A DNA stretch of 64,000 nt from positions 806,001-870,000 of the forward strand of contig CP142732.1 of assembly GCA_036630325.1 (NCBI GenBank), given 5' to 3'. The stretch is from Vairimorpha necatrix. Lineage: Eukaryota. This document shows, in pieces, positions 20,047-62,207 of the stretch; position 1 is the first letter of the stretch, and every line of letters begins with the position of its first letter. The notes under the pieces were generated by a model that was given only the letters and a program-made list of their open reading frames with translations, searched no databases and was not told the origin of the DNA. Position numbers and translations under genes: made by a program.

Positions 20047-21684
20047 TTAATTTGCATATTTTTTAATAATCTCATTCAAAAAGTGTGTTGTTTCGACTCT
20101 AAGATTAAATTTCTTAGTTTTGTTTTTAAATGTTTTGCATTTCAGGATTAGAGAACATTCTAAATTTTCAATACTTGTATTTTTTTCAGATTCTGCTTGC
20201 AATGAGAAAGTATCAAGAAAATCAAATCTTTTAGAAACTACATAATTATGGATTTCTAGTTTCAACGCCGAAAAATCAAAATGCGAAATGTTAGGATTCA
20301 GAGAAAATTTAAACACTAATATTTTTTCAGGAGCTCTTGTCATATTAATTAATTTCTTCTTCCATAATTCCGAATTAAGGAATTTCACTTTGCCTCCATT
20401 CTCGCACAATAATGACGTGCTAGTCAATCCGAATGTGTATACTTTATATTCATCGCCATCGACTATTACTTCATCTCCCACATCAAATTGATGACTTAGT
20501 AACATCATAAAGTTATAATATTGATCTGTAGCCATACCACTTGCAATAAAATTTAAAGCCAAAGCACTACTTAGTGCAAGTGCCAATAATTCTTTTAGCG
20601 GAGCTCCGAATAATATCAGATAAATTAGGCAAAGAATGAAAAAAACAAAAACGTTAAAAAATGTTCCAATAATTGAAACGAATTCTTCTGCACGGCGAAC
20701 ACTTTTTTCAAGATATATTCTTTCCATATAAAAAGTCATTATAGTATCATGAAAAGTTTTCATTTTTATAGATTTGTCAATTCCGTTATCAAAATAAAAG
20801 AATGCATTAATTGCTGTCTGTGGATTTGCAAAAATAGTATTAAATTCATCAACTGTAAGAGATTTACCATTTCCACTTGCTTTGACGAATACGTCTTTAG
20901 CCAATGTTTTGGCATCAGAAATACTGTGTAACTCTGGCTCTGGAATATCCAAATATGTTTTTTGTATATCTAAATCTTCTAAACTCCGGTCGTTTAAATT
21001 ATCCAAATGTGAACTTGAAGACATATCATAACAATAAATATCCTGACATGGACAATTTTGACTTCCGACACTACTAGAGGAGCCTATCTCATATCTGAAA
21101 GTTTTCATTGATGATATTATTTTTTCAGTTTTTTCTACATCATTAATTTTTGCTTTTAATGTTTGATTGACGAAATATCTATCAAAAAAGATCATTATTA
21201 CAGATGTTATATTGTATGCAATTGATGTTACTAGAACAGATGCAAAAAACGCTCTTAAATAATAATAACAACCTAATACGTCGTTCATATTTGCTTTAAA
21301 CCAAGATAGATTTACAAGGCTCCATATTGATAAGATGATTAATCTATAACTTCCAAGAATGAATTCCAACATTGAATTCACTCTGACATTTAAACAAACA
21401 TAGACAGTGCATTTTACTAAAACATAAATAAAAACGAACGAACCCAATATAAAAATACTATTGTTTAACAAAATGAAGAAATCTATACCGAAAAGACTTA
21501 AATTAGACATTCTAAAGACAAAATATATAATTCTTAATCCTACAAAAAACAACAATACATAACCTATTTGGCTGGAGAGTAAATCAAACAAGAATGAAAA
21601 TGTGCTTCTTTTGTATTCACTTTGTTCGAATTCCTCTAGTTCCGCATCGATATCATTTTCAAACCAATTGAAATTTTCATTCAT
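20047..21684 (-). CDS. Small-conductance mechanosensitive channel (MscS-like)
   Basis: Multiple TM segments followed by the MscS core HQFDVGDEVIVDG...LTSTSLL...NSELWKKKLINMTR. Confidence 0.85.
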   Translation of the reverse strand: MNENFNWFENDIDAELEEFEQSEYKRSTFSFLFDLLSSQIGYVLLFFVGLRIIYFVFRMSNLSLFGIDFFILLNNSIFILGSFVFIYVLVKCTVYVCLNVRVNSMLEFILGSYRLIILSIWSLVNLSWFKANMNDVLGCYYYLRAFFASVLVTSIAYNITSVIMIFFDRYFVNQTLKAKINDVEKTEKIISSMKTFRYEIGSSSSVGSQNCPCQDIYCYDMSSSSHLDNLNDRSLEDLDIQKTYLDIPEPELHSISDAKTLAKDVFVKASGNGKSLTVDEFNTIFANPQTAINAFFYFDNGIDKSIKMKTFHDTIMTFYMERIYLEKSVRRAEEFVSIIGTFFNVFVFFILCLIYLILFGAPLKELLALALSSALALNFIASGMATDQYYNFMMLLSHQFDVGDEVIVDGDEYKVYTFGLTSTSLLCENGGKVKFLNSELWKKKLINMTRAPEKILVFKFSLNPNISHFDFSALKLEIHNYVVSKRFDFLDTFSLQAESEKNTSIENLECSLILKCKTFKNKTKKFNLRVETTHFLNEIIKKYAN

Positions 21685-21770: not shown

Positions 21771-21800
21771 TAAAAAGCCGTTAAATTTAACGGCTTTTTA
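21771..21800. promoter_or_regulatory. Perfect 30-bp palindrome in the divergent MscS/IntS11 promoter
   Basis: TAAAAAGCCGTTAAATTTAACGGCTTTTTA is its own reverse complement and is followed directly by GACCCCAA-ATG. Function is inferred. Confidence 0.55.
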
Positions 21801-21808
21801 GACCCCAA

Positions 21809-23308
21809 ATGAAAATCATTCCATTGGGTGCGGGTCAAGATGTAGGCAGATCTTGTATTATTGTTAATGTAGAAGGTAGAACTGTTATGTTTGATTGTGG
21901 TATGCACATGGGGTTTAATGATCAAAGAAGATTTCCAGATTTTTCTGTATTAAGTAAAACTGGCGATTATAATAAACTTATAGATTGTATCATTATTTCT
22001 CATTTTCATTTGGACCACACGGGGGCTCTGCCTTTTTTTACTGAAATTTGTAAATTTGATGGTCCAATATACATGACAAAACCAACCAAAGCCGTTATAC
22101 CATTATTATTAGAAGATTTCAGGAAGATCTCGTCCCCTAAAACCGTAGATGGTAATTTTTTTACTTATACAGATATTTTAAATTGTATGAAAAAAATTAT
22201 AACTATAAATTTTAATGAAACTTATAAACACGACGATGATTTTTATATCACGCCATACTATGCAGGCCACGTTATAGGGGCAGCTATGTTCCACATTAAG
22301 GTGGGTAACAGGAGTATTGTTTATACTGGTGATTATAATATGACGCCCGATAGACACTTAGGAGCCGCTTCTATTCCATGTTTAAAACCAGATTTACTTA
22401 TTACAGAATCCACATATGGTTCAATTACTAGAGATTGTAGAAAATCCAAGGAGCGAGAATTTTTCAAAGCTGTGTTAGACTGTGTAACAAACGGCGGAAA
22501 AGTTCTTATTCCCATTTTTGCTTTAGGACGTGCTCAAGAACTTTGTCTCTTACTTGATTCGCACTGGGAAAGAATGAACTTGAAAGTTCCAATATATTTT
22601 TCAGGAGGTTTAACTGAAAAAGCAAATAATATTTACAAACAATTTGTAAGCTACACAAATGAAACTATAAAAAATAGTGCTATAAATTATAATGTATTTG
22701 AGTTTAAAAATATTTCTACCTTCCAGAAACATTTTTTAGATTTAAATACTCCTATGGTACTTTTTGCCTCGCCCGGAATGTTACATTCAGGCATGTCGCT
22801 TAAAGTTTTCAAAGAATGGTGTTCAGATCCTAAAAATCTTGTAATAATTCCTGGATATTGTGTTAAAGGAACAGTGGGCGACAAGGTTTTAAATGGAGAT
22901 AGTGAAATAGAAATATTGGGAGAAGTAAAACATATTAATATAAAAGTTAAAAATTTAGCATTTAGTGCTCACGCAGATGCACAAGGCATTTTAAATTTGA
23001 TTGACATGTGTAAACCAAAAAATGTAATGTTAGTTCATGGAGAAAAATCAAGAATTAATATTTTAAAAAAGACAATTGAAGATAAATTTAACATTCCTGT
23101 ATTTAAACCAGAAAATGGTACATGTATAAATATTCCCAAAGATGATCTTATTAGATTGAGATTTAAAGGTGAAAATTTAGAAAAATTTTACAAAAATAAC
23201 TTGCACAAACAACAAGTAGCACTGAAATTCAGAATTAATAAAAGAAAAGAAGGCGAGAATTTTTTGGAAGTTTCTGAGTGTGAAAATATCATAAATGACG
23301 CGGAATAA
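21809..23308 (+). CDS. INTS11: beta-CASP metallo-beta-lactamase RNA endonuclease, IntS11/CPSF73-II type
   Basis: GAGQDVGRSC, DCGMHMGFND.RRFPDFS, SHFHLDH, AGHVIGAAMF, TESTYG, FSAHAD, VHGE. The QDVGRS and MHMGFND signatures match IntS11 rather than CPSF73/Ysh1. Confidence 0.8.
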   Translation: MKIIPLGAGQDVGRSCIIVNVEGRTVMFDCGMHMGFNDQRRFPDFSVLSKTGDYNKLIDCIIISHFHLDHTGALPFFTEICKFDGPIYMTKPTKAVIPLLLEDFRKISSPKTVDGNFFTYTDILNCMKKIITINFNETYKHDDDFYITPYYAGHVIGAAMFHIKVGNRSIVYTGDYNMTPDRHLGAASIPCLKPDLLITESTYGSITRDCRKSKEREFFKAVLDCVTNGGKVLIPIFALGRAQELCLLLDSHWERMNLKVPIYFSGGLTEKANNIYKQFVSYTNETIKNSAINYNVFEFKNISTFQKHFLDLNTPMVLFASPGMLHSGMSLKVFKEWCSDPKNLVIIPGYCVKGTVGDKVLNGDSEIEILGEVKHINIKVKNLAFSAHADAQGILNLIDMCKPKNVMLVHGEKSRINILKKTIEDKFNIPVFKPENGTCINIPKDDLIRLRFKGENLEKFYKNNLHKQQVALKFRINKRKEGENFLEVSECENIINDAE

Positions 23309-33159: not shown

Positions 33160-33981
33160 ATGGTAGCTAGTAAAGATTCAAGGTCATCTAAATTTTCAAA
33201 ATCAGGTAAAAAACAAGAACAATCTGAAGACTCGACGTGCGCCGATCTTTCGAGTGTTGAATCAAATTGTGAAGCAGTTTTTGACATTAAAAAGGAAAAT
33301 TATGATGATTCAAATGAAATTAGTGAAAAGGTAAGTTCCCATTTTGAGAAGCTTAAATCACAGAGACATGTCCCGGATCAGAAAAATTCTATTCGCAAAA
33401 GAAAAAACGGGCCTGAATTAATAAACTCGCCCATTGCCGCTCAACAAAAAACAAATAAAACAGGCTTAGATTATTTAAAAGAAATAGCTGACCAAATAAG
33501 TTTTGAATCAAAAAAAAAACTTTATAAAGAAAAAAGTTTTTCGCCTGAAAATTCAATTACACAAAAGATCAGAAAATTAAAAGAAGATAAGATGAATAAA
33601 TCTAATCACAATATAAAAGAAAACTCTTCAGAAGTTCCCAAAAATAAAACAAATAGAGAACTGATACAAAATAAAAAACCTAAAAAAGAGGGAGAAATGG
33701 ATGAAATATCCGAGAATGAAACTATAAAATGTTTTGCAGATTTCTCGGATAGTATGTTTTCTACGCGAAAAAGTAAAGGCGAGACAATGTTTTGTTGTGC
33801 TGATGCCGACTGTAACGTGGAATTGCCTTCTATGAGTCGAATCAAAAGGCACTACCTAGTACATACCGACCTAAAACCTTTTAAATGTCTTAGTAAAAAA
33901 TGTACTAAGAAATTTTCAAGGAAAGATAATATGTTGCAACATTACAGAATGCACTGTAAGAAAAATAGAAAAAAGGATTGA
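33160..33981 (+). CDS. C2H2 zinc-finger transcription factor, paralog A
   Basis: Two C-terminal fingers: C-ADAD-C...RIKRHYLVH-TDLKPFK-C-LSKK-C..KFSRKDNMLQHYRMHC. Confidence 0.88.
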   Translation: MVASKDSRSSKFSKSGKKQEQSEDSTCADLSSVESNCEAVFDIKKENYDDSNEISEKVSSHFEKLKSQRHVPDQKNSIRKRKNGPELINSPIAAQQKTNKTGLDYLKEIADQISFESKKKLYKEKSFSPENSITQKIRKLKEDKMNKSNHNIKENSSEVPKNKTNRELIQNKKPKKEGEMDEISENETIKCFADFSDSMFSTRKSKGETMFCCADADCNVELPSMSRIKRHYLVHTDLKPFKCLSKKCTKKFSRKDNMLQHYRMHCKKNRKKD

Positions 33982-34375: not shown

Positions 34376-35404
34376 AAAAATAAGAAATTTCAAAATAATA
34401 AAAAATGTTTATTAAAATAAATCTTCTCTTGCTCTTCCCTTTTCTAGCCAGCCTATCATATTTCTGTAAAACGCAGGACACTCACGGCTATAATCTAAAC
34501 TCAAAACTTTCTCAATAATTGTTTCAATTAGACTTTCTGATGATTTAAAAGATGAAAATCTTGCCCTGAGCATCGAAAAAAACTCTTCAATGGGATTTAG
34601 TTGTAGTGAATAAGTAGGCAGAAATTTATGATTAATGCCCAGATTATTTAATTTTTGTAAAACTTCCCGCGAATGATGAAAACTGGCATTATCCATTATA
34701 AGAACTTTACCAGGATTATTCCAAAAGAACATAGATAATTCATTTTCAACAAAATTCATAAAACTCTCGGAATTATATGCTCCAAGTTTATACTCAAATG
34801 CCAATAATCCATTTATAGTAATTACTCACATACAGCTTATATTTTTGCCACAATTTGCTGGCACAATATTATAGGCTTTGGTATTCTTTTCTGAATATCC
34901 AGAACTTCGCGTAGTAAAGCGTTGAACCCAGTTTCATCAAGAAAAAATTAGGTTTTCGATCGAGTGAGTACCTACTGATTTCGGAGGCATAGATACTCCT
35001 TTGATTTATTTTGTCCAATGAGTTACGTTCAACAGGAATCCAACTGAGCCTTGTTCTTTATACCGAGTTTTTTGAGTTTTCTCGATATTAAAGATTTTGA
35101 CAAATTTACATTCGTTCGTAAATTTAACTCATTAAAAATTTCCTGTAAAGTCATATCGTTTGCACAATCAACTATGTTTTTAACAACTCGGTCTGTATTC
35201 GAAAGCATTTCATTTTGATACAACTGCCGAATAGACCTTGTAGGTTGATTGTGCTGGTTTCGAATAATAGATTCAACGGTTTTACGATGTAAATCAACCA
35301 TAGTCGACATTTCGGCCATGGATCGTTTTTCATCTTTTGTCAACTCAAGAACCATATTCTTTAATTCGTTGGTTATTGTTTTCCTTATTTTTCTTACTAT
35401 TAAG

Positions 35405-35601
35405 GGGAATATAGAAATGCAAACATGGGAATATAGAAATGCAAACATGGGAATATAGAAATGCAAACATGGAAATATAGAAATGCAAACATGGAAATGT
35501 AAGAAATGCAAACATGGGAATGTAAGAAATGCAAACATGGGAATATAGAAATGCAAACATGGGAATATAAAAATGCAAACATGGGAATATAAAAATGCAA
35601 A
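35405..35601. repeat. Right terminal array, 9 copies of the inverted 22-23-bp unit GGGAATATAGAAATGCAAACAT
   Basis: Read directly; it explains the repetitive spurious ORFs at 35345-35665. Confidence 0.9.
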
Positions 35602-38600
35602 GCCCTGTATTTAATAGTATACAATAAAAAAAATATTTATGGTGTAAACATAGTACAAATAACATTTAATCGTTTTAATTTAAATATCACTGTGATTAGT
35701 GTATTGTTAAGAAAATTTTTTTTTATTGTCATGACTTGCGACGATAGAATTACAAAATTATACTAATAACACAGAATTGAATTGAAAACACACCAAAATA
35801 ATACTTTGTGAAACGTTTGTATAAAATTATTGATTGTCTTGAGGTAGACTATGTGAGGGGGACTTGTCCTATTACTTACTGCTAAAAATGAATACCTAGA
35901 AAAAATTTTGAGCGTAGCATTCGTATTCGCATGAATAGCACAATCTAATATGCTCATCTCTTGATAAAATAATTATTATTAGATATGATATTTATAGAAA
36001 TTAACATATTATCTTATATCTAATAATTGCTATTTAATGTACTCTTTGCAGCATTTTGATGATGTACAGAGAGTCAGATAGGCAGTAAAAAAAAACAACA
36101 TAATATTTCAGTATGAACCACAAAATAATATATTTAAAACCGAGCTTAATTGGGCAATAATTAATATACCTACTTTATTGAGTTAAATATGTTAATATTT
36201 TTGAATGTTGAAAATTTAGTTGACATAAAACAACTAAAATGATTTATATCCTTAACAATAGTCAATTTTAAACCGATAAATTAAAATTGATATTTATAGC
36301 AAAATAAGTCGAGTAGAAACTCAGAATTAAAATAATAGAACTAATTTATTTACTCCAAATGATTATTTAAAAGATTTATTATAATTTTGTAGTGAAGCTA
36401 AATCTAGATTCTGTTAATTTTCAGAAAATAGAACCAACAAAAAAACTTTTAAATTTATAGAAAATTGTCTAGCCTAAAGTGTGATGAATTAGTATCACAT
36501 GTAACTCTTATATAAGTTTTGTGAAAGTTAATTTGGAACCGAAGCGAATTATTTTTTGCAAAATTTGAGGTTATTCAAGTAAGGTGGTCAAAATCGTAAA
36601 GATTTTAGAATGAAACCTTAAATATAGTGCTAACAAGCGTAATCAAATGATTAGAGGTTAATTCTATGAAAGACAAAGCAATATTTGTGTATATAGAACT
36701 TTAACGATGATTAAAATATGTAATAAGTTAAAATTATACGCAAAATTAGTACAGGGCACCATGTAAGTATAGAGCGGTATACAATTAGAAACATTATACT
36801 TACAAACAAAATCCCCGTAAAAAGGCTCATATTGATGTATTTAAAAGAAAAAAAGCGGCATACGCATAATAAACAGTTAATATTGTTGTAAAAGCACTTT
36901 ATTTTTTTCGTCCTCTTCTCTTTCCATAAGATGAAGTTTTAATATTATTAAAATATATGGAAATGATCGAGCATTGTAAATGCTCTGTTAGAGCGTAAGG
37001 AACAACGACAAATATAATTTACCAGATTCAACTTAATTTGCCGATATAAAGATTAGAAATCATTCATTCTGACTAATAAATACATTTCGAAAAAATAGTT
37101 TCATGGTAATTACATAACATAGAATGATAAAAAAATATAGAAAGATAACGTGGGATGAAAAGTATATTTCCCTGATGCATACATTTAATATTATGTGCTG
37201 AAAACCTTTAAAATCTAACTCTTAGTGTAGACGGGTACATGATCAGGAAAAAAAATGGATAGGACATCGAGTTTTTATTAGTAAACGTAATATCTGAAAT
37301 AGCTGTTATAAAAAGGTATTAGTAGGAGTCACTATTGGATTTTTTTGTATGTTATTAAAACATCACTAAAATTGCTAAAATTTTTAAATGCAAATTATAT
37401 ATGCGATACTGATGATTTACGTACTAATAAATCTAAAAGGCGAATATTAACTTAAAAAATTTATTTTATTAATCTTATTTATATTAACTAATTTTACAAA
37501 CACGAAGATTATTTTAAATTAATCAATATTTTATCGAATGTTTATAAGTAAAAAAATTATTTTTATTAACAATAGAAGATGCAAAGCTTATAATTTACTA
37601 CGATTTTATCTAAAAAGTTTGATGATTAGTTTAATTTCTGAATAATATAAAAAATCATTAATAACAAAAATAAAAAACTATAATTGTTGAGAATAGTAGA
37701 CTGGGGGGTATCAAATAATATTATCGCTATTTATAGTTATCCAACAATAATTCTTATAAATATGAGCTACCTATTATATTTTTTCTGAACAAAAAATTAA
37801 TTGTGTTACATAAAAAATAAATTGTATGAATTAGGTATAGATCCTATAAGTAATATTGTCCAAAAGAACGCCGTTATATCTTTTTTCATACTCTAATAGT
37901 TGATTTAAAAAATCCAGTGCTAGAGCTTTAATCCGCAGTTATTGAGTAAATAATTTTGCAAAGTTGTAGCAGTAACTGGTTACCTTTATGTAAATTCATT
38001 TTTTTTTTTCTATCTATAATTTAAAAAAGGTTATTGTACCTTGGAAATTGATGTATATAGATATTTTAGCAGCCTAATGTTTTGTCGTGAACTGTATAAA
38101 ATTATGTAGGTTCTTTGGGCTGCTCAATAAAAAACATCGAAGGCTCTATCAATAAAAGAGAAACTATAAAGTTTGCTAGCGATATGTGGATTTAACACAA
38201 CCATTATACTTTATTAGGCTTTTAATCGTAACTAACCATTAAAAGTGGATTGTTTAATAGTCCAATCATCTTTCTGAGACACTAACTTACCAATATCAAA
38301 TTCTTTTTTCCAAAGGTTGGTTTTGTATTTTTTAAGACGCTTTGATTTTTGGAATCATATAATATTAATAAATACTGTATAAAAAGAGCTAAAAGTAAAT
38401 CGATTAAAATAAATATATTAATAAGAATTAAACATTCAATTAAGCATTTATGAGTATTTGCCCCCTAAATTGTAATTTATCAATAAACAAATTAATTCTT
38501 AGGTAAATGATCTATACAATTCAACAAAATAGACGATCATTGAAAAAATTAATTTAATTGATTGTATGCCAATTACTAATTAGTCAAATCCTTACAAATA

Positions 38601-38953
38601 TATCATATGTATAAAAATATTGTGAATGATCTGTAAGTAATGCACACATAAATTTATCTGCAGAGATCTGAATATCAAATTTAAAACTTTTATCATTAAA
38701 AATTTTACAATGTTAACTAAGTCCTTTATTTACCTAAATTTATATGGCAAATGAAAAAAAAATCATACAAAAAAGTTATATTGAAAATAAAAAGACTAAA
38801 CTGACACTTTCATAAAAATTATGCAATAATTTTAGTGTTTTAAAATATAAATCACGAAATTATTGGTTAGCTACAAATATTGCCTAATTTATTAAAAAAA
38901 AAATGTCTCCTTTCCTCCTTTATTAACATAAATACAAAAAATGATGAGTGCAT

Positions 38954-39619
38954 ATGTCAGGTAAAAAAAGATTTCAAAATAAAAAGGTCAGAAAATCCAA
39001 TTTAAAAGAGGAGGTATCAGAAGAATCCGGCCCTTCTGATCTCACTAGCGACCTACACCATCAAAAATCCGAAAATTCTAGCTTTTTTTATCTAAAACAA
39101 GCAGCCACGGAAGCAGAAAAGAAGCTAAAAAAAAGACTTTATAAAGAAAAAAGTTACATTCCAGAAAACTTGGATCGAGAACGGCTAAGAACAATTAAAG
39201 AAGCTAATAAGAAGAAGGAGAAAAATATGAAGAAGGAGAAAAATAAAAAGGAAGGGGATAAAAATGTATTAGGACGTGCTAGCCTCCTAATTCAAAAAAA
39301 ACCTAGACAAATTAAAAAGGAAGCAAAAAAAACAGAATCTGCTCCGCCAGAAAATGAAATTATAAGAAGTTTTTCCGACTTTGATGACAGTTTATTTGAG
39401 AAAAAAACAATAAATGGTGTCGTTATGTTTTGTTGTGCGAAAAATGGCTGTAACAAACAATTGCCTACTATTAGTCGAATTAAGCGCCATTACATATCCC
39501 ATACGGATATAAAACCTTTTGTTTGTCCATCAAAATCTTGTTCTAAAAAGTTTTCTAGAAAAGACAATATGCTTCAACACTATAAAGCGCATTGTAAAAA
39601 AACTAAAAAGTACGATTAG
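38954..39619 (+). CDS. C2H2 zinc-finger transcription factor, paralog B
   Basis: Near-identical finger region to paralog A (RIKRHYISHTDIKPFVC...KFSRKDNMLQHY) plus shared YLK..A....KKxLYKEKS.PEN block. First in-frame ATG at 38954. Confidence 0.88.
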   Translation: MSGKKRFQNKKVRKSNLKEEVSEESGPSDLTSDLHHQKSENSSFFYLKQAATEAEKKLKKRLYKEKSYIPENLDRERLRTIKEANKKKEKNMKKEKNKKEGDKNVLGRASLLIQKKPRQIKKEAKKTESAPPENEIIRSFSDFDDSLFEKKTINGVVMFCCAKNGCNKQLPTISRIKRHYISHTDIKPFVCPSKSCSKKFSRKDNMLQHYKAHCKKTKKYD

Positions 39620-39914
39620 CACTACTATATTGTAAAAAAATTGGTTGAACAATTATATCTATAGAACATAATAAATAGTAAACTTTGTTGAAACTTGCAT
39701 TTTTTTTAATGATTGTTAAATTTTTTTTTTTTTTTTCAATAAGTCATATACATGCGACTTGTTGTAAAAATTATTTAAGACATAATTTATTTAGTAATCT
39801 TTTAACATTATCAAAAACAAAAAAAATAACAATATATGCGCGTTTTATTTTTTTAAAAATAAATTGACTCGTGTATATTTTTTATAAAAATAATTTTGAG
39901 TTTAAATGCATATG

Positions 39915-40138
39915 TGGACTGATGGTTTCCCATCAGTCCGAGAAGAATGTTTTAAACTAATGTTTTTATTATTCTTCATACCCTTCTGGGTATGATTTTC
40001 TTTTATATTTATAGATGGGAAAATATTATACATTTCCCTCCATAAACATAGTTGAGAGAAGGAAGAGAATACTTATAGAATCGTATTTTCTGAGCTCCGG
40101 GGCATTTTTAGGACCACCGGAGATCTGTCACTTGACAG
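39915..40138 (+). ncRNA. Candidate structured non-coding RNA (unassigned family)
   Basis: About 7 back-to-back hairpins in a GC-enriched island; imperfect pairs are G-U on the plus strand; no ORF. Confidence 0.5.
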
Positions 40139-41160
40139 CATATATTTTAAATTTAATATAGACGTAATTGAAGACAAAACCATATTTTGGTAAAATTACT
40201 AGCCTTAATTGCAAGAATTTATGACCAATTTGTTTTAGATGATGAAGTAAAAATAATAATCAAAGGTTTTACAATTTAATAGCAACAGTAGGATGTAATA
40301 TATTAAGATATAGAATACTATTTAAATTAAGTCGTTTTTAGTTCTACCTGTACAGGTAATACATTTGCTAAAGCTCTTTTATTTTGATTTAGTATCAACT
40401 ATAAATCAAAGATGGTAATAGAAATATCATACAACAATTTTTTATGAATTTTTTCGGGGAAACATTAATAAATGATAAAAAATTGATGAGTAGCTAGCTT
40501 TTCATATAAGTAGAGGATTTTTTATTAGATTTATTTGATGTGATTAAGGGTGTCTTAATTTCCAGATGATTTTATTACAAAATAGAAATGATCCATATAA
40601 AATCTTAAGAGTAATTATTTGTTTTTTAATTTTTTTCATGAGCTAAAATCCATTTGCAAATATTTCTTAACTGTGCGTCAAATAATAACCATAACCCGAG
40701 TATACGATTTTATATCGATGTGATCTAATGTTTATTGACATGTTTTGTTCTGAAAATGTACTAATCAATTTTACAAATGTAAAAAAGTGATTTTCATTTA
40801 AAACAAGCTATTATTAACCATGAAATCAAAAGGACCGGATTGAAAGAAAGACGATTATAATGAAGTTAAAGTTCAAGACATATCACTATATGATTTTTAA
40901 GAAATTATATAAAAAATAAGTACATCCACTCTTTATTGTTGGAATTCAAAAATTTTTAATATTAATAATTTAAAAGTAGGTAGAATAAATAAATTTGAAA
41001 CCTTTCGCGTTATTAGGCTGATATTTTTTACATTCGATTTCGTTAAAATGCATAAGCTATGAATTTTAATATTTCTACTATAGTCTATACATAAAAGGCT
41101 TTGTTTGCTGTTCGAACTAACTCTTGACTTTGATATTTTATAAAGCAGAAATTTTTTGTA

Positions 41161-41521
41161 CCGGGTTTCCGGGTTATAAGATCCACCCCCAAAGTCGAAT
41201 AATTACGACTTTTTAAATGGAAATTTATATACTAGTAGAAGAGATCCCCATAGCCGGATGGTAAAAAATTAATATAAAAAGAACCCCCTTGATATAATGA
41301 CCCTTCAATTTTACTAGTAATCTGCAGCTCGAAAGCAGTCATAATTATGTTGCCATTGTTTTCATGCAATTTTTTTTAGCATGTAAGATTTTTTTTCATG
41401 GGGGTAAAGTTTCAAAAAATTTTAAAAAAAATTTCAAATATTTTATATCAATAGAAAAGATTTACCCATAGATAAGATCCATGGTTTTTTTTGGGTGGAT
41501 TCTATAAGCCGGAAACCCCGG
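41161..41521. mobile_element. Tc1/mariner-type MITE (361 bp)
   Basis: Imperfect ~33-bp TIRs (CCGGGTTTCCGGGTTATAAGATCCACCCCCAAA versus reverse complement CCGGGGTTTCCGGCTTATAGAATCCACCCAAAA), flanked by TA on both sides; no ORF. Confidence 0.8.
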
Positions 41522-44500
41522 TAGTTTAAAAAACGGGGTACAATAAGGAACTTAGTCAATGGTACGTACGATCATTAAAAAATTTTATTTTAATGTCACA
41601 CAAATAATCTATTTATTTTGTTTACTTCATAATATCATGTTGTAAAAAAAAATCAAAATTGTTGACTGCATTTGCCATAGAATTTGTATATATTGGAATT
41701 CTACTAATACAATAACATCTTTAATAACTTTCAATTTGTTTTGAAAATTAAAATTTTGTTTTTTTAGATACTGTAACAAAATGCCACATTATTTTTGTTC
41801 TTGTTTCATCTATTTCTTAATAATAAAAATTGTTTTATCTATATTTTCATAATCTATTATACTTCAAATAAAAACCTTAAGCAAATAATCAATTTATTAT
41901 TTTATAGATATCCTATAATTAAGATGATTATTTATTTATGTTCGTTTATTGATTTCAATTTTATTTACTCTTATACGACACTATGTCTAATTTATAAACT
42001 TTTTTTTTGTAGATTATTATGATTGAAATCAAAAAAACAATGCAAAATTTAGCATTTTTATATAATGAGGTAAAAATGATTAAAGAGTATATGTATTATA
42101 TTATTAATAAAAATTACAACGTAAATCTATATTTTTATTGATATTTCAATATTTTTTCGCAAATTTATCAACAAAAAACATTAATTATAATTTAAAGATA
42201 TAAATCTGAAATTTAGTACGGCAATTATTAGATAATTTAATAGAACGAATTGTCCAAAGAAAAAATTAAAATTACTCGTCTTAAAATCGTATTTTGTTTT
42301 CTTAAATTCCCAATCGTTTGAATTTTGACTTAATTTATAGAAAATCTAGATTCAAGTCAAAGAAATAAACGTCTCATAAAATTTTTAATGGCCTTTAATT
42401 TATATTGAGCCATCGTCTTTGTCGATATAGATTAGTCGCATACCAAAAATCTACTAGAGGTATCTCGGGGATATTGTTTCAAGAGCAAAGGCTAGAACCT
42501 TACCTATACATTTTAATGTTATTTAGAAGATTCATCAAAATTGTTTTTTGTATTATGAAGTAAAAAAAACATTATTATTTTATCAATTTACTAAACTATG
42601 TATTCATTTAAAATATTTAAGTTAGATTAAAATTAGCAATTGCTTCAAATTATGTTATCTACGTGTTTTAATGAAATAATAACAGCTGTGTATTTTTGAT
42701 TTATTTTTTTATTACGTAAAAGTTTGAGATTTATTAATCAGATCGTATCTATTAAAACAAACTTGGATAATAAGGGAGATTTTTTAAATGTACAAAATTT
42801 AAAGTAAATTTTTTTTGCTAGTCATAAGATCAAACGAACATAAAAAAATGATCAATTCAACTATATTTAATTTCGTAAATATTGCTTTATAGTTATTTTC
42901 TATAAAAAACTACAGAGAAATATATTTTGTTGTTTTTTATAGAATTATAGGTTTTAAGTCATAAATGATTTTTTTCCTTTTCCACTCAAATGTTTTATAT
43001 ATTCTTTTAAGATCTTACCAATGCTTTTATTTTCTAAAGAGTTACTACAGGAGAAGCCAGAAGCGACCCTTTAATATCTTGCAACGAATGGCCGCAAGCG
43101 AGAAAGACATTTGTCGGTCGTTGTATTATATTATGATCCAATAATGACAAACCTGTTATTTGTACATTGTAATATAATTTGTATCGTTTTTGTCATCGTT
43201 GATTTTTTTTGTATAGCATTGTTGTAGAAAAACGATTAATTCTTCAAAGTGAACAGAGAACTACTTTTAGCATTTATTAATAAATAGTTATATTAAATAT
43301 TTTTTTTTATTGTCTCTAATTTAATCCTAAGAAATCTTCGAGATTAGAAATTTAAAAATGTATGACTACTAAGAAGGCTAACTATCTTTATATCGAAAAT
43401 ATAGGATAGGACATGTAAATTCTTGAAATTTCACATCATTTAATTTTTGAGAATCCTAGTGCTAAAAAAAATAATAACCACAATTTTCATGTACTATAGC
43501 ACAAAAATATATTACAAGAGAGATCATTTAAAAAATCCTACGCAAGTAGACTTTCATTAACGTATTTTTAGACAATAATGTGATAACAAATAAATTCTTG
43601 AGAAATAAAAGTGGCACTATCAATATATAGATTAAACAAGAAAATAGTGTTAATTAAAATCAAAAACATTAATAAATATTAGTTTATTTATTCAATCGTA
43701 TATTTTAAACTAAAAAAACTACACAAAAATATTCCCCAATGCGGAACTTAATATTTAACCTATGTGCTTATAATTTATTTTGTTTTAAAATGTTATGATA
43801 CTTTTAATTTTAAAACGATTTTAAAATTGTGACATCATTTATATTACAATAAACATAATCATTAATAAATATCTACAAAAAAATAACATAAAAGTATAAA
43901 AACCTACAAACATATGCAGATTTTTTACTTTGTCTTATTTTTTAGTACGAAATTCTGGCATATAATTATAATATAAATGCCTCAAAACAACTCTAAGAGC
44001 GCAGTTTTTGGCCAATTTTTAATTATTACGTAAAATTATGATATACAAAAGCTTGAATTCGTATTTCTAATTTTTTTTAGTGTCTAATAATATTAATTAC
44101 AAAAATTTAACTGCTTAATAACAAAAAAGTCTCTGGTTCGCCATGCGCGAAAAGTTGTGTCATATGATTAACTTATATATACTATTTAAAAGCTAGTGTG
44201 TCGATAATAGCATTATTTATCATGTTTAAAAGTAAAATAAACCAAAGAACATTAGTTTAACTATTATAAATCCTTTAAACAAAGAGCGCTAAAGTACGAA
44301 TGAATATAAACTTATAACAGGATCCTCATAGAAAATAAGTTGTATTAAAAATCACGTTGATTTATGTTCGAATACTTAGTACAATGTAGATTTTATCTTT
44401 TCAAGAAAAAAGATATTTGAATAAATTCATATACTATATTGTAAATAAGCATATATATACTGAGCTCATATATGCAATTGTAAAATTCTATTTACTATGT

Positions 44501-46595: not shown

Positions 46596-46644
46596 GCTTC
46601 TAATAAGCAAATTAAAGTTGTGTTTTAAAAATTTTTATCGTGAG

Positions 46645-46768
46645 TGTCGTTAAATCGTTTATTAATATTTTCCATCCCCTCTTTCCAGCATGAATTTATA
46701 TAGTTTAATTGACCAATCATCTTGCAACAATTGTATCATATTTTGTGGCCCCTGTACTGGCCACGACA
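46645..46768 (-). repeat. 3' LTR
   Basis: Identical to 50424-50547; preceded on the minus strand by a short purine tract GAGGGAG (PPT). Confidence 0.95.
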
Positions 46769-46773
46769 CTCCC

Positions 46774-49540
46774 TCAACTAATTTGAGAAGTATCCCGTTT
46801 TATATGACATTTGTTTACCCTTAATTCTCCGTTGTTATCGGTTCTTTCTACCATATATGCATCTTCGCTGATTATTTCGGATATCTTATAACCGTGTGTC
46901 CATTTGGAACTTAATTTATCTTTGCCTGGGATATCTCTAAAAATGATCACGCGTTCCCCGATATTAAATTTTGTTTTTACGTCTTTATGTCCCTTGACTA
47001 TTCTTTTTTTGTATTTAATGAAATTTTTATCTCTCTTTTCTACGAGGTATTGTTTTGAATACATTTTCGGCTTGATATTCAATCTCTTATCTATTTCTGT
47101 CATTAGTTGATGTCCATGCTTCATTATGTATGGAGATGTTCCTATTGCGCGATTGAATGACAAATTAACCGCTAGTGTTGCTTCCTTTAAAAAAGGACTC
47201 CAATTTAATTCTCCAAAGCAAGACAACCGTCTTATTACGTTTTTTAGAGTCTGGTTTACTCTTTCCACTGCTCCTGTTGTTTGGTGATGGTATGGGGACC
47301 CAAATTCCCACTTGATATTGTATTTATTTTGAAGTGATAGCACTTCTTTATTGTTGAACTCTAACCCGTTGTCCGTCAAAATTCTATCAGGAATTCCATG
47401 TTTTTTTATAATTAGTTCTTCGATAGCTTTGTATATTTCGTGCCCTGTTTTATTTTTGATTATTTTTGTTTCAATCCATTTCGTGTAATGATCTATCGCT
47501 ACGAAAACATATTTTGAACCCGAGATTTCATACATTCTACCCATTAAATCGATTTCTCACACTTCGTTTGGCTTATCTGCGCAGATTACCTTATTTTTTG
47601 TTTTAACCTTTGGTCCTCCTGCTCTTAGACAGATACTACATTTTGAGCTAATTTTCTATATCCTTATACATTCCTTTCCAATTGTAGTTTCGGGAAATCA
47701 TAAACTTCATTGTGTTAACTGACCCATGTCCAGAAATCCTATGATATTCTGTTATTATGTCCTCTTTATCTTTGTTGTCCAGTTCTTCGGCGTTAATGTT
47801 ATTTATTTCTTCACTATTATAAAACCTACTAAATCCATCGGCAATGTTGTTTCCCCCTTTTTTATGTTCCAATTCAAAGTCGTATTCTGCGAGTTTTAAG
47901 GACCACCTGAGCAGCCTACTAGAAGGGTCTTTTGTGCTCATTAAGTATATGAGAGCTTTGTGGTCCGTTCTATGTTTAAACTTCCTTCCTAATAAGTAAT
48001 GTCTAAAGTGGTTAATCCCTTTAACCAAGGCTAGTAATTCTTTATCCGTCACTGAATAATTTTTTTGACAATTATCTAATCTTTTCTAAACGCGGATATC
48101 ATTTTCTCTTCTCCATGATCATTCTCCTGGAGTAACACTGCACCAATACCCGAGTCCGATGCATCTGTCAAAAATATAAAGTCCTTTTTAAAGTTCGGTT
48201 GAGTTCGTACAGTATTTTTTTCCATTTGGCGTTTAGTTCTATTAAAAGCAGCCAATTGATCTTCCGTAAGTGTGATTTTTTTACTTGAGTTTTGTCTCTC
48301 CCCTCTAAGTATGTCATATAATGGACTAGTGCGATTCTATCTCCTTCACGAAGTCTTTACAATAATTAACTGTTCCCAAGAAACCTCTGAGCTCTTTAAT
48401 AGACGTGGGAATTGGGTACGTTTGAATGTGACTAATTTTCTCTGGGTCTACTTTAATGCATCCATTCCCAATAATATTTCCTAATATTTTGATTTCATTC
48501 TTGTAGAATTTACATTTTTTTAAGTTTAATGATAGTCCTGAGGCTCTTATTTTTCCTAATACTATTTTTACATGTACGTTGTGTTCCGCTTTCATTCTAG
48601 AGTATATTATAATGTCATCTAGGTATGGTATTAAGAATTTTCTGTTTTCCATTCTAAAAATATTGTCCATGGCTCTCTGGAAAGGGGCAGGAGCATTGCA
48701 TAGTCCGAAGGGCATTCTGTTGTATTCATAAAGCCTTCCTTTAAATGAGAACGCTGTCTTCTCTTTATCTTCTTCTTCCAAGAGCAATTGTTGGAATCCA
48801 CACGTAGCGTCTAACAAAGTGAAAATCGATGCCCCTGCAACACGGTCAAAAATCTCGTCGATCCTTGGAGACATATATGAATCCTTAATAGTGATTGCAT
48901 TTAATCCTCTGTAATCTATGCACATCCTCCAAGTTTTGTCTGGCTTCGGGACCATTACTATCCTGCTACACCATGGGCTTTTACTATCCCTTATTATTCC
49001 TAACTTTAACAATTTATTTATTTCGGTTTCTATTATTTCCTCTTGTGCAATAGGTATCCTGCCATTTCTCTGACAGATTATCTTATTACTATTTGTTTGC
49101 ACGCTATGTTTTCCTGCAGTACAAAGATTAAATTCGCTTATCTCCGTTTTAAATAAATCCTTATATTCTTCCTTAATAAGAGTCTCATTCTCCTCTATAA
49201 CGGTTACGACTTGTTTTTCATGTCCCAATTTAAATGTTCTGATTAATTCGATAATTAACTCTGTGTTTTTTTTGATAACCTCTGACCCTAAAATTATATA
49301 TTTTGTATTTTTCATTATAAGAGGAGAAAACGTAATATCTCTACCATTTATCTTTACAACACAGTTTTTTATTTGGCCTATTATGTTTAATGGTTGACTT
49401 CCCGCGCCTTTAACGATTCCCGAGTAATTTAATATCTGTTTATGTAAATGTGATGGTACGTCTTTTTGGTCTATTATCGAGACGTCTGCTCCCGTGTCTA
49501 AAAGAATTTTCCTTTTATTATTATATAGAGTACCTACGAG
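46774..49540 (-). pseudogene. pol: pol (protease-RT-RNase H-integrase), broken by frameshifts and a stop
   Basis: LLDTGA protease (~49480-49495), RT MPFGLCNAP and YLDDII, RNase H LTDAS...NYSVTDKELLA...TDHKAL, integrase H-H-C-C, EIDL, TDNG, AVERVN. Frame breaks near 48340, 48086 and 47648; TGA at 47557-47559. Confidence 0.9.
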
Positions 49541-50424
49541 AAAAATGGGTTACTTTGGTCTATGACCCCAAACAAGTAATTAAAACTGTCTTTATTGTCC
49601 AAATCGTAATTATCTTTTTCAATTTGTTCCTCATTAGTGTTAACCTTCTTCGTCGAAATTCTTTTACGTTCATTTTCCAACATTTCAGTGAGTCTCAAAC
49701 ATTCCTTTGTGTAATGAGATCCTTCCCCATGTAACATGCAATATTTGCGGTTGTTTAGTGAACTGCCGTAATTTCCGCTGTTATTTGGCCCTCTGCCGTA
49801 ATTTCCCTTGTTATTTGGCCCTCTGCCAAAATCATTATTGTTGTATAGCCCTCTGCCATAATTTCCATTATTTTTTATAGTTCTATCTGGTCTTACTTCG
49901 ACCCTTGATAAAATTTTATCTGGATATGGTATCCATGCCATTTCTTCAGCTCTCTGAATGAAATCTTCCCATGTTTCCACATTTGAAGCTGCCTGGAATA
50001 GTATCGCTTTAATTTCTATGGGCGATTTGTTTATTACCATCTGACATAAAGCTGGAAAGTTAATTAAGTGTCTTTCAAATATAATTGTTGCTTCATACAA
50101 CATCTTTGAATATTCCTCCCTGGTCTCAGGCGTGGGTCTTTCCAAAAATCTGCTAAGAGTAATATCATTATTTTTATTAGATCCAAATCTTTTTTTCATC
50201 ATAGAAATCAGTTCTTGTAGTCCAATGGTGCCAATTTTCCCTCCTATAACTTGTGAAACCCAAGACAAAGCCGTTCCTTTCATCTTCCATACAAAAGCCT
50301 TCACCAGATCTTTTTCAGACCATTCTGCCACTTCACCCAAGATCATCATATCTCTTATCCAGATATTTATATCCTCTTCTGGTTCCCCTGCGAAATAGTT
50401 AACGTTGTTGGTCGTTGTCGCCAT
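49534..50424 (-). CDS. gag: Gag
   Basis: FAGEPEEDINIWI...WKMKGTALSW capsid-like region, GNYGRGPNN repeats, and a CX2HX4HX4C knuckle (CMLHGEGSHYTKEC). The frame is open further upstream into the LTR (to 50499). Confidence 0.85.
   Translation of the reverse strand: MATTTNNVNYFAGEPEEDINIWIRDMMILGEVAEWSEKDLVKAFVWKMKGTALSWVSQVIGGKIGTIGLQELISMMKKRFGSNKNNDITLSRFLERPTPETREEYSKMLYEATIIFERHLINFPALCQMVINKSPIEIKAILFQAASNVETWEDFIQRAEEMAWIPYPDKILSRVEVRPDRTIKNNGNYGRGLYNNNDFGRGPNNKGNYGRGPNNSGNYGSSLNNRKYCMLHGEGSHYTKECLRLTEMLENERKRISTKKVNTNEEQIEKDNYDLDNKDSFNYLFGVIDQSNPFFS
50411..50423 (-). promoter_or_regulatory. Primer-binding site (TGGCGACAACGAC), probably tRNA-Ser
   Basis: TGG directly follows the 5' LTR; complementary to the ...GUUGUCGCCA 3' end seen in some eukaryotic tRNA-Ser (from recall, unverified for this host). 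Confidence 0.6.
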
Positions 50425-50547
50425 GTCGTTAAATCGTTTATTAATATTTTCCATCCCCTCTTTCCAGCATGAATTTATATAGTTTAATTGACCAATCATC
50501 TTGCAACAATTGTATCATATTTTGTGGCCCCTGTACTGGCCACGACA
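50424..50547 (-). repeat. 5' LTR
   Basis: Identical to 46645-46768. Confidence 0.95.
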
Positions 50548-51637
50548 GTGAGTTTTTAAATTTTTCAATTTTCCTTTATCTTATTGATATTATTTGTTAC
50601 TGACTGTTTTCAAATCTTTGTAGACTTTCATTACTTTCAAACTGTTGTATGACTTAGTTATTTTACGCCTTTTAAATCTATTTTACGTTAAATATTTGTA
50701 CTCGAAGGTATTTGTAAATACTTATTAGAAACGTCTATGATTGCTGTATAGCTAATAAGATATTTGTTTCTTATCTTAAATATAAAACATTTCCATGGAA
50801 ATCGTTCAATTAATAGTTTATTGTTGCGGTCAAGTACAGGCTATTTACGTCTAGCTGAAAACGCACTTTGAGGTCGAAAAAATATAGGTTCAACGATATG
50901 CTAAGCCTTATATGAGTTATACAAAGCCTTTAATTTGAGCACTAGAAAGATATACTAAACTAAATTAAGAGACTAGATGAATTAGAACAAAAGGGGCGTT
51001 GGCGCCATCATACAGTATTCTAAAACGCGCTAGCCGAAACTTGTGGGATGCATTGAGTTATTATCTTTCCGGGCTAGTATGACGATGTTTCACTCTGGCT
51101 TTTCAAACCTTCCTTAATAATTATATCTTTTTGAGTGCTATATAGAAATAAATCGTAACGGAACTATTAGATCCAATTACAATAAATTTTTCTAAGCTTG
51201 CTACACTAACAAGTTTAATGGAGGGAGTTTTAGTAAGTAAGAATCTCACAGTATTATTAGGACGAGGATCCAGTTTAAGTTCTTCGTAGTCTCATGTAAA
51301 GTTTTTTCAATATTTTCACATGTAAGAAAACGACGATAGATCTCACTGTTCTTTTTTTTCTTAAACTTCTATATTTCCATCCTACTTTAAAAGAATGTGC
51401 CCATGGGGCTATTAGAATTTGCTCTCAATCCGTATTTTATTAAGACCGGATTACTTTGTCTTTTGATGTACTTTCTGTGATATTTATTTCTCAAATGTAT
51501 AGAAATAAGATCTTGTCCAGTCTTCATTTTGTCTGTAAGAAGCTCGTTTTCTTTTCTTTCCGTAAAATATCCATAATATTTTTTTTTCCGTTTTACTGGT
51601 GCGTTGTTTTTTTTATTTATGCTGATTTTTCCCCCCA

Positions 51638-54659: not shown

Positions 54660-56540
54660 TTAAAATTTTTTTATCTTTAAATTTTCATTAACTTCCAATA
54701 TCTCATTCATTATAAGCCTATACTTCATTAATATCCAATCTTCATCTTTCTGATACAAATACGGTATCCCAAACACTTCTTTCTCCCTCTCTATTTTTTT
54801 TATTATCTCCCTTTGATTTTTATTAAATTTTTTCTTACTATGCCTTAAATTAAAAACTATTCTATCTCGTATACCTCTACTCATACATTTATATCTCATT
54901 ACATACATACTATAATCTTCATACTCGTATTTATAATGTAAAGTTATATTACTTTTCCGATTAGTTATAAGAAAAAACGACTTGTTCCCATTTTCATGAA
55001 TATCTAAGGTTTCGACATTATAAATGTCCAGTAATTTGCCATTTAAATTTAGTATTAGAATATAATCAGCTATTAATATTAATTTGTACTTGTCACTTGT
55101 TATTTCATCAATATAAAGATCTTTGACGTCATATAAGTCGTATTTTATACATAATTCCCATGTCTTTTCTTTTTTAAATTGGATATCTGTCAAATTATCG
55201 CACAATAAGACGAATTTTCTGATTTTTATTAGAAAAAATTTCAAGGGTAAATACCCCAATGAGTCGGGGTGGGTGTATGATAATATTTTAGATAATAAAG
55301 CGTTATATTTTGTTAATCTTTGTGTCATGATATTGAATGTGTCTCTTAATAAATCGATGTTAAAATTTTTTATCTTACAATTTTTTAAAATGCTTTCTGA
55401 AAAAATTGAAAAATTTTTAAAAGAGTAAAAATATTCCAAATTTTTATATAAAATTGTAGATAGTTTTTCTGTGAGATCATTTTCGTCATTTACGAAAATG
55501 ATTTTATTTTCTTTATATTCGTCTAATTTTAAAGTGAGGTCTGCATTTGAAGTGAGATCTAAATTTGAAGTGAGATCTGCATTTGAAGTTTCATTAAATT
55601 TATAAGTGTCTTGGTCAAATTTAAAATCTAAATTTTTATATTCATCGAAATTTGAACTATATTCTTGATTTTTGTCTGGTTTAAAAATGTCTTGTAATGT
55701 ATAATCCACTTTTTTATATTTAAACATATTAAATGTATTTACTAGATCACTTACAAATCTTTTAGACAAAAAATATAATTTTTCAAAATCTTTAAAATAT
55801 TCATTAAATTTGTAAATTTCAAGTTTTTCTTTTTGTATCAAAATCCCGTTATAATACATTTTGTTCATAATTATTAAAACTTCCAATTCTGTAGATATAA
55901 GTTCATGAATTACAGTACTTAAGCCATTTTCTATATTTTTATAATTAATTCCCAAATTTTCTAAATCTTCAGAAGTGACATTTAGTTCGTCGAAATGTTT
56001 TACATCTTCGATTTTCTCGTTTTTTAGTTCTATTTCTAAGAAATCTCTGAGTATAAAATTTTCTATTTCTTCAGCGTAGAAATAGTTTAATTCTGAGATT
56101 CTGTTTTTTAGATTTTCTATCTTAAACTTGTTTATATTTGATAAGACGAATGTTTTGATTAAATTGTTAAGTGGTTGTCTTGTTCTATTAGAAGTTAATG
56201 ATACGATATTAGAAGTTAAAAAAGAGAAGACATTATCAAAGAGAGTAGATCTAGTATTAAGTTGGAGATCCCAGTTGTTTATAAAATGCCTGAAATATTT
56301 ATCAAATGACATAAATAATATTTGTTCTTCTTTTAGTTGTGAGTTTGTGTATTCAAATTCTAATAAGCCCAAAATTGATCTGCAGTAAACAAAAGTGGTA
56401 TTTTCTTTAGAAATTAAAGAAATACAAATAGAGCCAAATTCCTCAATGTAAGTTATAAAACTTCTAGAGGAGTGATATTTCTTAGGGAACATGTCAATAT
56501 AATAAGAAAAGTCTTCATCTATAATATTTTCACCACCCAT
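54660..56540 (-). CDS. Dbl-homology (RhoGEF) domain protein
   Basis: VIHELISTE and QRLTKYNALLSKILSYT DH motifs, followed by a possible PH region; internal TSNADL x3 repeat. Confidence 0.7.
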   Translation of the reverse strand: MGGENIIDEDFSYYIDMFPKKYHSSRSFITYIEEFGSICISLISKENTTFVYCRSILGLLEFEYTNSQLKEEQILFMSFDKYFRHFINNWDLQLNTRSTLFDNVFSFLTSNIVSLTSNRTRQPLNNLIKTFVLSNINKFKIENLKNRISELNYFYAEEIENFILRDFLEIELKNEKIEDVKHFDELNVTSEDLENLGINYKNIENGLSTVIHELISTELEVLIIMNKMYYNGILIQKEKLEIYKFNEYFKDFEKLYFLSKRFVSDLVNTFNMFKYKKVDYTLQDIFKPDKNQEYSSNFDEYKNLDFKFDQDTYKFNETSNADLTSNLDLTSNADLTLKLDEYKENKIIFVNDENDLTEKLSTILYKNLEYFYSFKNFSIFSESILKNCKIKNFNIDLLRDTFNIMTQRLTKYNALLSKILSYTHPDSLGYLPLKFFLIKIRKFVLLCDNLTDIQFKKEKTWELCIKYDLYDVKDLYIDEITSDKYKLILIADYILILNLNGKLLDIYNVETLDIHENGNKSFFLITNRKSNITLHYKYEYEDYSMYVMRYKCMSRGIRDRIVFNLRHSKKKFNKNQREIIKKIEREKEVFGIPYLYQKDEDWILMKYRLIMNEILEVNENLKIKKF

Positions 56541-56606: not shown

Positions 56607-56645
56607 ACATTTATTTATGCATATTTTATATGCATAAATAAATGT
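56607..56645. repeat. Perfect 18-bp inverted repeat (3-nt loop) plus an extra direct copy at 56567-56584
   Basis: ACATTTATTTATGCATAT-TTT-ATATGCATAAATAAATGT. Confidence 0.85.
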
Positions 56646-61630: not shown

Positions 61631-62207
61631 TTTGGGCTATTTTAATTTTTTGTATAAATAGTAGAGATATAAATCTCCCCCAGGTGATTTAAATAACAAG
61701 AATAGAAGCTCTTTTTTATTTGAGTCCTAGTTGATTAAGATATGTTTCAAAATAGTAACATATATATTGACTTGTATTTGATTGAAATAATTGTATCTTC
61801 TATTGTATAGTATACATATATACTAATCTGTATTGACTTAAATATGAATAAAGATGATAGTCTTATATTGTATAGTATACATATATGCTGATTTGTAGTA
61901 TTGACTCAATCAACTTGCGTCAATAACATAAATCAGTATAGATACATTACAATTGATAATGTTAAGTAATATGATTACATTACAACTGATAATGTAATAT
62001 AGTATAGATGCTTTTCAACTGATAATGTGTAAATATGATGATGTTGGTAATGCAAACCTTTTGTCTATTGACAAGCCTTTTTACATCTCATGTTCTTCTC
62101 TTCTTAATTTCATGCTGATTTTTTTTCCTTAAATATTTTTCAAAAATACTTTGTTTGTTCAAACCAACAAATTTATTTGCATAATTTTTACTCCTTCTTT
62201 AGACATC

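Follow-up and report, generated by a model that had tools for sequence, protein, structure and literature searches.

A 225-bp repeat built of seven stem-loops in Vairimorpha necatrix is probably a solo LTR of a Ty3/Gypsy-type retrotransposon

The Locus and Its Setting

The window described here, that is, the whole stretch of 64,000 nucleotides that was analysed, is compact and AT-rich microsporidian DNA with a GC content of 21-35%, and the open reading frames (ORFs) for housekeeping proteins in it are intron-less and densely packed. They include a shortened DNA polymerase epsilon (1,650 amino acids), an Mtr4/Ski2-type helicase, a proteasome ATPase and a CPSF73-like nuclease. The part between 34 and 46 kb has few genes and many remains of mobile elements. 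A fragment of a Tc1/mariner-type transposase (DDE_3) lies on the minus strand at 34412-34804 and is adjoined by a tandem array; in this region (34412-35665), repeats of about 22 bp at 35369-35645 give spurious repetitive ORFs on both strands. In addition, two paralogous C2H2 zinc-finger genes, 33160-33981 and 38954-39619, lie 5.6 kb apart; their proteins are 47% identical, and their nucleotide sequences are 71% identical over the last 193 nt. The protein encoded by 38954-39619 has named relatives in Ordospora, Encephalitozoon, Enterospora and other microsporidia.

The 225-bp element that is the subject of this paper adjoins only the zinc-finger gene 38954-39619, beginning 294 nt after its stop codon (39617-39619) on the same strand side, and no such element follows the paralogue 33160-33981. 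An intact LTR retrotransposon, called the resident element below, is also present in the window. The features of both elements are collected in Table 1.

Table 1. Features of the 225-bp element and of the resident LTR retrotransposon, in positions of the window.
Feature	Position	Strand	Remarks
225-bp repeat unit, probable solo LTR	39913..40137	minus	TGTCA...CCACA (minus), TGTGG...TGACA (plus); limits from contigs of relatives
Left copy of target-site duplication, GCATA	39908..39912		Directly outside the repeat limits
Right copy of target-site duplication, GCATA	40138..40142		Identical to left copy; one X2 contig has its loose end immediately past 40137
Hairpin 1	39916..39939		Perfect 10-bp stem GGACTGATGG/CCATCAGTCC, 4-nt loop; presumed U5 end of LTR
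Hairpin 2	39942..39977		GAAGAATG/TATTCTTC, inner AAAC/GTTT; one G-T pair on plus strand
Possible polyadenylation signal AATAAA	39965..39970	minus	35 nt downstream of TATA-like motif; motif level only
Hairpin 3	39976..39995		Perfect 8-bp stem TCATACCC/GGGTATGA, 4-nt loop
Possible TATA box TATAAATA	40006..40013	minus	Motif level only
Hairpin 4	40006..40050		Extended imperfect stem around GGGAAA (40017-40022) / TTTCCC (40033-40038)
Hairpin 5	40065..40090		GAGAATAC/GTATTTTC; wobble G40067-T40088
Hairpin 6	40095..40122		CTCCGG/CCGGAG
Hairpin 7	40125..40138		CTGTCA/TGACAG; 5 of 6 pairs are the palindromic LTR terminus TGTCA..TGACA
Resident LTR retrotransposon, intact	46645-50547 (46640-50552 with duplications)	minus	LTRs, 5-bp duplication, reverse transcriptase and integrase ORFs
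Resident integrase ORF (rve)	46774-47544	minus	
Resident reverse transcriptase ORF (RVT_1)	48326-49315	minus	
Resident 321-aa ORF	49534-50499		Gag position, gag-like; no Pfam hit

Stem-Loops and Folding Strength

The original prediction described a multi-hairpin structure at 39915-40138 with seven inverted-repeat pairs. All seven are present in the sequence at the places given, and all of them are stem-loops in the minimum-free-energy fold of this segment. Furthermore, the folding z-score against dinucleotide shuffles, which had been named as a check, is far below that of the shuffles on both strands. The plus strand (224 nt) has a folding energy of -76.4 kcal/mol compared with a shuffle mean of -47.6 ± 4.3 (z -6.76), and the minus strand one of -75.5 kcal/mol compared with -41.8 (z -7.58), none of the 200 dinucleotide shuffles being equal in either case. 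The structure is equally good on either strand and no strand asymmetry was found. In a scan of the plus strand of the window by 120-nt segments at a step of 40 (n=1,598), the segment starting at 39881 took the first rank with z -7.81, followed by a runner-up with z -5.99, all of these values being rough because only 12 dinucleotide shuffles were made for each segment.

Hairpin 1, which is 24 nt long, occurs a single time in the window at up to 3 mismatches, where none is expected. A sensitive blastn search of the 64-kb window for a second copy of the element gave only the element itself and low-scoring AT-rich noise. Two exact patterns had 0 matches each in viral contigs. A metagenome scan for the arms of hairpin 1 with a free loop gave 18 loci, all with 50-66% GC; these were rejected as chance palindromes and not relatives, as 5 of them align over the hairpin at most and 13 align nowhere at E up to 1.

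Copies in Relatives and the Limits of the Repeat

DNA contigs of two sequencing runs, X1 and X2 (word shares 0.20 and 0.16), were placed on positions 37500-42500 of the window. The longest pieces in the single-copy neighbourhood differ from the window in 30 of 292, 32 of 315 and 53 of 595 letters, that is, by about 10%, and the two runs are therefore regarded as coming from relatives and not from the genome of the window. Two further runs, X3 and X4, gave only short pieces of low identity. The summed contig depth over 39838-40171 is 1,508-1,870 in X1 compared with 490-750 over the zinc-finger gene (about 2-4 times), and 65-82 in X2 compared with 2.5-9 (about 8-30 times), but such sums do not give copy numbers, and distinct contigs with differing flanks are the sounder evidence. 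Of these, 10 in X1 and 12 in X2 overlap position 40015. Both long pieces listed (X1 record 4 and X2 record 13) begin their match at 39913 and, among the matches listed, loose ends with unrelated flanks are found at 39915 before the element and at 40137 behind it.

The contig limits 39913 and 40137 therefore define a unit of 225 bp, by which the extent of 39915-40138 given in the original prediction is to be corrected. The seventh stem, too, is present as described, except that its sixth pair uses the first flank base, since the last G (40138) lies outside a unit of 39913-40137. Judged by these contigs, the segment is shown in the relatives to be a dispersed repeat with sharp limits. Among the matches listed, no contig bridges 39837-39913 and no joint skips the 225 bp as an empty site would.

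X1 record 4 runs through the zinc-finger gene (39482-39609) and 14 letters like 39610-39622, enters the element at 39913-40087 and then returns to 39618; by the length of the record, about 50 letters are unaligned, which matches the missing 40088-40137. Its arrangement indicates a putative copy of the family beside the stop codon, about 295 bp from the place of the window's copy and between near-identical 5-mers, and would imply mobility, although this reading is weakened by the chimeras that short-read graphs can form where sequences are repeated.

The copies in relatives also bear on the stems. At position 40088 in hairpin 5, all covering contigs (3 of 3 in X1 and 4 of 4 in X2) have a G-C pair, and because all of them carry it the wobble G40067-T40088 of the window is explained as C-to-T decay of a perfect palindrome. 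The original prediction had taken the G-U pairs of the plus strand as a sign of selection on an RNA; this argument fails, given the G-C pair in the relatives and a fold that is equal on the minus strand. At position 40015 in hairpin 4, the related contigs all have G instead of A, which makes a G-U pair on the plus strand and a mismatch on the minus strand. Moreover, 4 contigs of X1 and 3 of X2 have an extra T after 40032, in the loop of hairpin 4. These differences suggest that the stems are a trait of the repeat family, the positions being too few for a covariation test.

Apart from the element, an AT-rich segment at 38335-38501, upstream of the zinc-finger gene, also has a raised summed depth (3,125 in X1) and is covered by 6-10 contigs per position in the relatives. 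It may be another repeat family, or may reflect low-complexity cross-matching at the 80% threshold.

Termini, Target-Site Duplication and Possible LTR Motifs

The unit is flanked on both sides by GCATA, a perfect 5-bp direct repeat which, at fixed limits and with the base composition of the window, would arise by chance with a probability of about 0.0026; the limits of the unit were set by the contigs of the relatives independently of this duplication. Both termini match TGTNR...YNACA, the pattern by which the great majority of LTRs of the Gypsy type are reported to end (PMC2836005). The minus strand has a TATA-like motif with AATAAA after it (Table 1), and no AATAAA is found on the plus strand of the element. 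The LTR of the resident element has TATATAAA in the equivalent place and AATAAA 31 nt after it; the shared order may be taken as a weak indication, such motifs being common in DNA of 26% GC.

One X2 contig extends 255 letters past 40137 and, on the minus strand, has a run of 14 purines ending in GGGAG directly before TGTCA; among the loose ends listed, it is one contig of one run. Positions preceded by 14 purines have a frequency of 6e-4 in the 64-kb window, and GGGAG followed by TGT occurs there only once, both strands considered, namely at the junction of polypurine tract and LTR in the resident element. With a polypurine-like tract before the TGTCA end, the orientation of the LTR would be minus. 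At this junction the related copy looks like a 3' LTR, and the junction would be the best single argument for a retroelement and against a DNA transposon. Beside the other end of the element, where the loose end listed is a mix of two contigs at 0.6 agreement, no sequence was recognisable as a primer-binding site, and no full-length element bounded by two 225-bp units was seen in the 64-kb window or the contigs of relatives listed.

The Resident LTR Retrotransposon as a Comparison

The two LTRs of the resident element (46645-46768 and 50424-50547) are direct repeats of 124 bp with 100% identity, and the element is apparently young. On the minus strand its LTR ends are TGTCG...CGACA, and CTCAC is duplicated on both sides. 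Furthermore, the 5' LTR is followed by TGGCGACAACGACC, a TGG-initiated primer-binding site, and the 3' LTR is directly preceded by a purine tract ending in GGGAG. This signature means that integrases of this genome make TGT...ACA ends and 5-bp duplications, as are found at 39913-40137.

The two LTRs differ in other respects. No sequence similarity is detectable between the element and the resident LTR: the local alignment score of 28 was matched by 82 of 1,000 shuffles, and the similarity ranks behind that of 418 of the 1,662 background windows. Homology of the two had been considered, as a MAFFT alignment was suggestive around TATA...AATAAA, but was rejected because the local score is not above chance. 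In addition, the element consists almost wholly of its seven stem-loops, and the resident LTR folds with z -2.68 compared with about -7 for the element.

Interpretation as a Probable Solo LTR

From these sequence features, the segment 39913-40137 is probably a solo LTR, in minus orientation, of a Ty3/Gypsy-type retrotransposon, lying in a transposon-rich and gene-poor stretch. A transposon-derived structure was the last of the alternatives offered in the original prediction, and it is the one favoured by the dispersed copies in relatives, the GCATA duplication and the TGT...ACA ends. Solo LTRs of the Ty3/Gypsy elements (Metaviridae), of which the yeast sigma elements are an example, have in common with the element the TGTNR...YNACA termini, the 5-bp duplication, a length between one and a few hundred bp, copies scattered among flanks that are unrelated to one another and the order of TATA and then AATAAA on one strand; in one related copy of the element, moreover, a polypurine-like tract abuts the TGT end. 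To our knowledge, seven stacked stem-loops are not usual in LTRs.

As the sequence shows, a full element integrated at this locus and its integrase made the 5-bp duplication GCATA; recombination between the two LTRs would then have deleted all that lay between them, so that a single LTR stayed behind with a copy of GCATA on each side. The seven stem-loops would be a built-in trait of the LTR family and not a product of the locus. In the parent element they would fall in U3, R and U5, where they could act as palindromic protein-binding sites in the promoter, and could also be RNA structures near both ends of the genomic transcript, surrounding the polyadenylation signal and beside the primer-binding site. 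The copy described here is most probably an inactive relic, which could at best provide the zinc-finger gene with a stray promoter or poly(A) signal about 300 nt downstream of it. It is thus regarded as an ordinary feature of unusually palindromic build. For annotation, a z of about -7, the best in 64 kb, tempts one to call a non-coding RNA, whereas the copies in relatives, together with GCATA and the TGT...ACA ends, mark the element as retroelement debris.

Alternative Explanations

In the main rival reading, which is rather unlikely, the element is a MITE, a non-autonomous DNA element mobilised through cut-and-paste transposition by a DDE transposase of integrase-like type, such as a member of the Nosema "TGT-type" families or a derivative of Ginger2/TDD, although its 225 bp, AT-richness, multiple copies in relatives, 5-bp duplication and TGT...ACA ends would all suit one and precedents are on record. 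A MITE family common to three Nosema species is described, in passages of He et al. (2015, PMC4405373), with target-site duplications of 5-6 bp and terminal inverted repeats starting with TGT; these TGT-type families are like the element in their microsporidian host, short length, duplication and ends, but the likeness is by description only, and they are classed there as DNA transposons of unknown superfamily, whereas the polypurine-like junction in one related copy of the element argues for a retroelement origin. Ginger2/TDD likewise has TGTNR ends, 4-5 bp duplications and a preference for AT-rich targets, according to parts of PMC2836005, but the terminal inverted repeats of Ginger2 are given there as 50-180 bp long. 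The element has no real terminal inverted repeat but a few bases: 8 of the 13 first positions match between its ends, and none of the 25 longest inverted pairs joins them. A retroelement is also indicated by the polypurine-like tract that adjoins TGTCA in one contig of a relative. The original prediction held that many dispersed copies with terminal inverted repeats or target-site duplications would reveal a MITE; dispersed copies in relatives and a duplication were indeed found, but the element has no terminal inverted repeat of any length, for which reason a solo LTR is preferred to a classical MITE. In the text of He et al. (PMC4405373), LTRs have 0 occurrences, so that the Nosema families of TGT type with 5-6 bp duplications may themselves be solo LTRs; if this is true, estimates of the transposon content of these parasites would change. 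In a literature search, judged by its search results alone, no paper on solo LTRs in microsporidia was found.

A gene or pseudogene family of a structured non-coding RNA (divergent snRNA, snoRNA or novel RNA), multi-copy as a gene family or as a retroposed SINE-like RNA, would account for the very strong fold, for the base inserted into a loop after 40032 and the substitution at 40088, both of which keep or improve the stems in related copies, and for the G at 40015 that pairs (G-U) on the plus strand only. This reading is very improbable, however, as the minus-strand structure is as good, and the perfect 5-bp duplication and TGT...ACA ends are marks of an integrase and not of a gene. The original prediction had found no match to U1/U2/U5/U6, SRP, RNase P/MRP or hammerhead cores, and for the whole window Rfam 15 gave 0 hits that reached the gathering thresholds. 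A permissive search of 39600-40500 (E up to 10) gave 9 weak hits, all with at most 22.4 bits compared with thresholds of 39-100, and the best of them are two Enterococcus sRNAs and two H/ACA snoRNAs (E 3-7, 18-22 bits compared with thresholds of 52-90). The H/ACA snoRNAs are like the element in their hairpin-hinge-hairpin look and their length of 120-200 nt, but S_pombe_snR90 and plasmodium_snoR11 scored 18.2 and 17.7 bits (E 6.5 and 7) compared with gathering scores of 80, and their hits are on opposite strands and therefore such as chance would give. The A-tail, variable-length duplication and tRNA-like part of SINEs are missing, ARAGORN found no tRNA in the window, and no pol III boxes were seen by eye. 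A SINE was accordingly rejected as a candidate, there being no Rfam hit to tRNA, 7SL or 5S either and the element ending in TGACA without a tail. Least probable of all, and hardly to be expected, is a cis-acting element of the zinc-finger gene, that is, a 3' UTR structure or terminator; its position on the same strand side, 294 nt past the stop codon, would fit, but the paralogue, with 71% identity over its last 193 nt, is without a following copy, the flanks around the element in relatives are unrelated, and 3' UTRs of microsporidia are generally short. The novel non-coding RNA, divergent snRNA and 3' UTR element that the original prediction listed thus obtained no support from any test run (Rfam, strand asymmetry and contigs of relatives).

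The solo LTR leaves the density of stem-loops unexplained, the resident LTR having a z of only -2.68, and because of this a small probability is kept for an integrase-mobilised repeat family that consists from end to end of seven stem-loops, conserved as a chain, with its structure under selection. Such a chain could be, for example, a Dicer substrate feeding the RNAi pathway of the parasite, or a structured retroelement leader or terminator turned mobile (a hairpin-only, TRIM-like non-autonomous retroelement). Hints in this direction are the C at 40088, with which hairpin 5 has G-C in place of the wobble, and the position of the indel after 40032, which falls in a loop; small RNAs from the ends of Nosema "MITEs" are also reported in passages of He et al. 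(PMC4405373). If the stems are conserved across copies, the family would be a tractable case, in a minimal eukaryote, of how LTR structure is used for transcription, for reverse transcription or for the production of small RNAs.

Other Strongly Folding Sites in the Window

At 56607-56645, two arms of 18 bp form a perfect palindrome around a loop of 3 nt. It occupies the short spacer that separates the polymerase epsilon ORF (stop at 56678) from the minus-strand ORF next to it (start at 56540); the 120-nt segments there have z values of -5.3 to -5.7, and the palindrome could be a transcription end or start signal. A perfect hairpin with 13-bp arms and a 4-nt loop is found at 21771-21800, between the divergent ORFs 20047-21684 (minus) and 21809-23308 (plus). 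Other 120-nt segments with low z are those at 61881, 58921, 58161 (inside the polymerase epsilon ORF) and 23921, with values of -4.7 to -6.0 that are rough, each resting on 12 shuffles.
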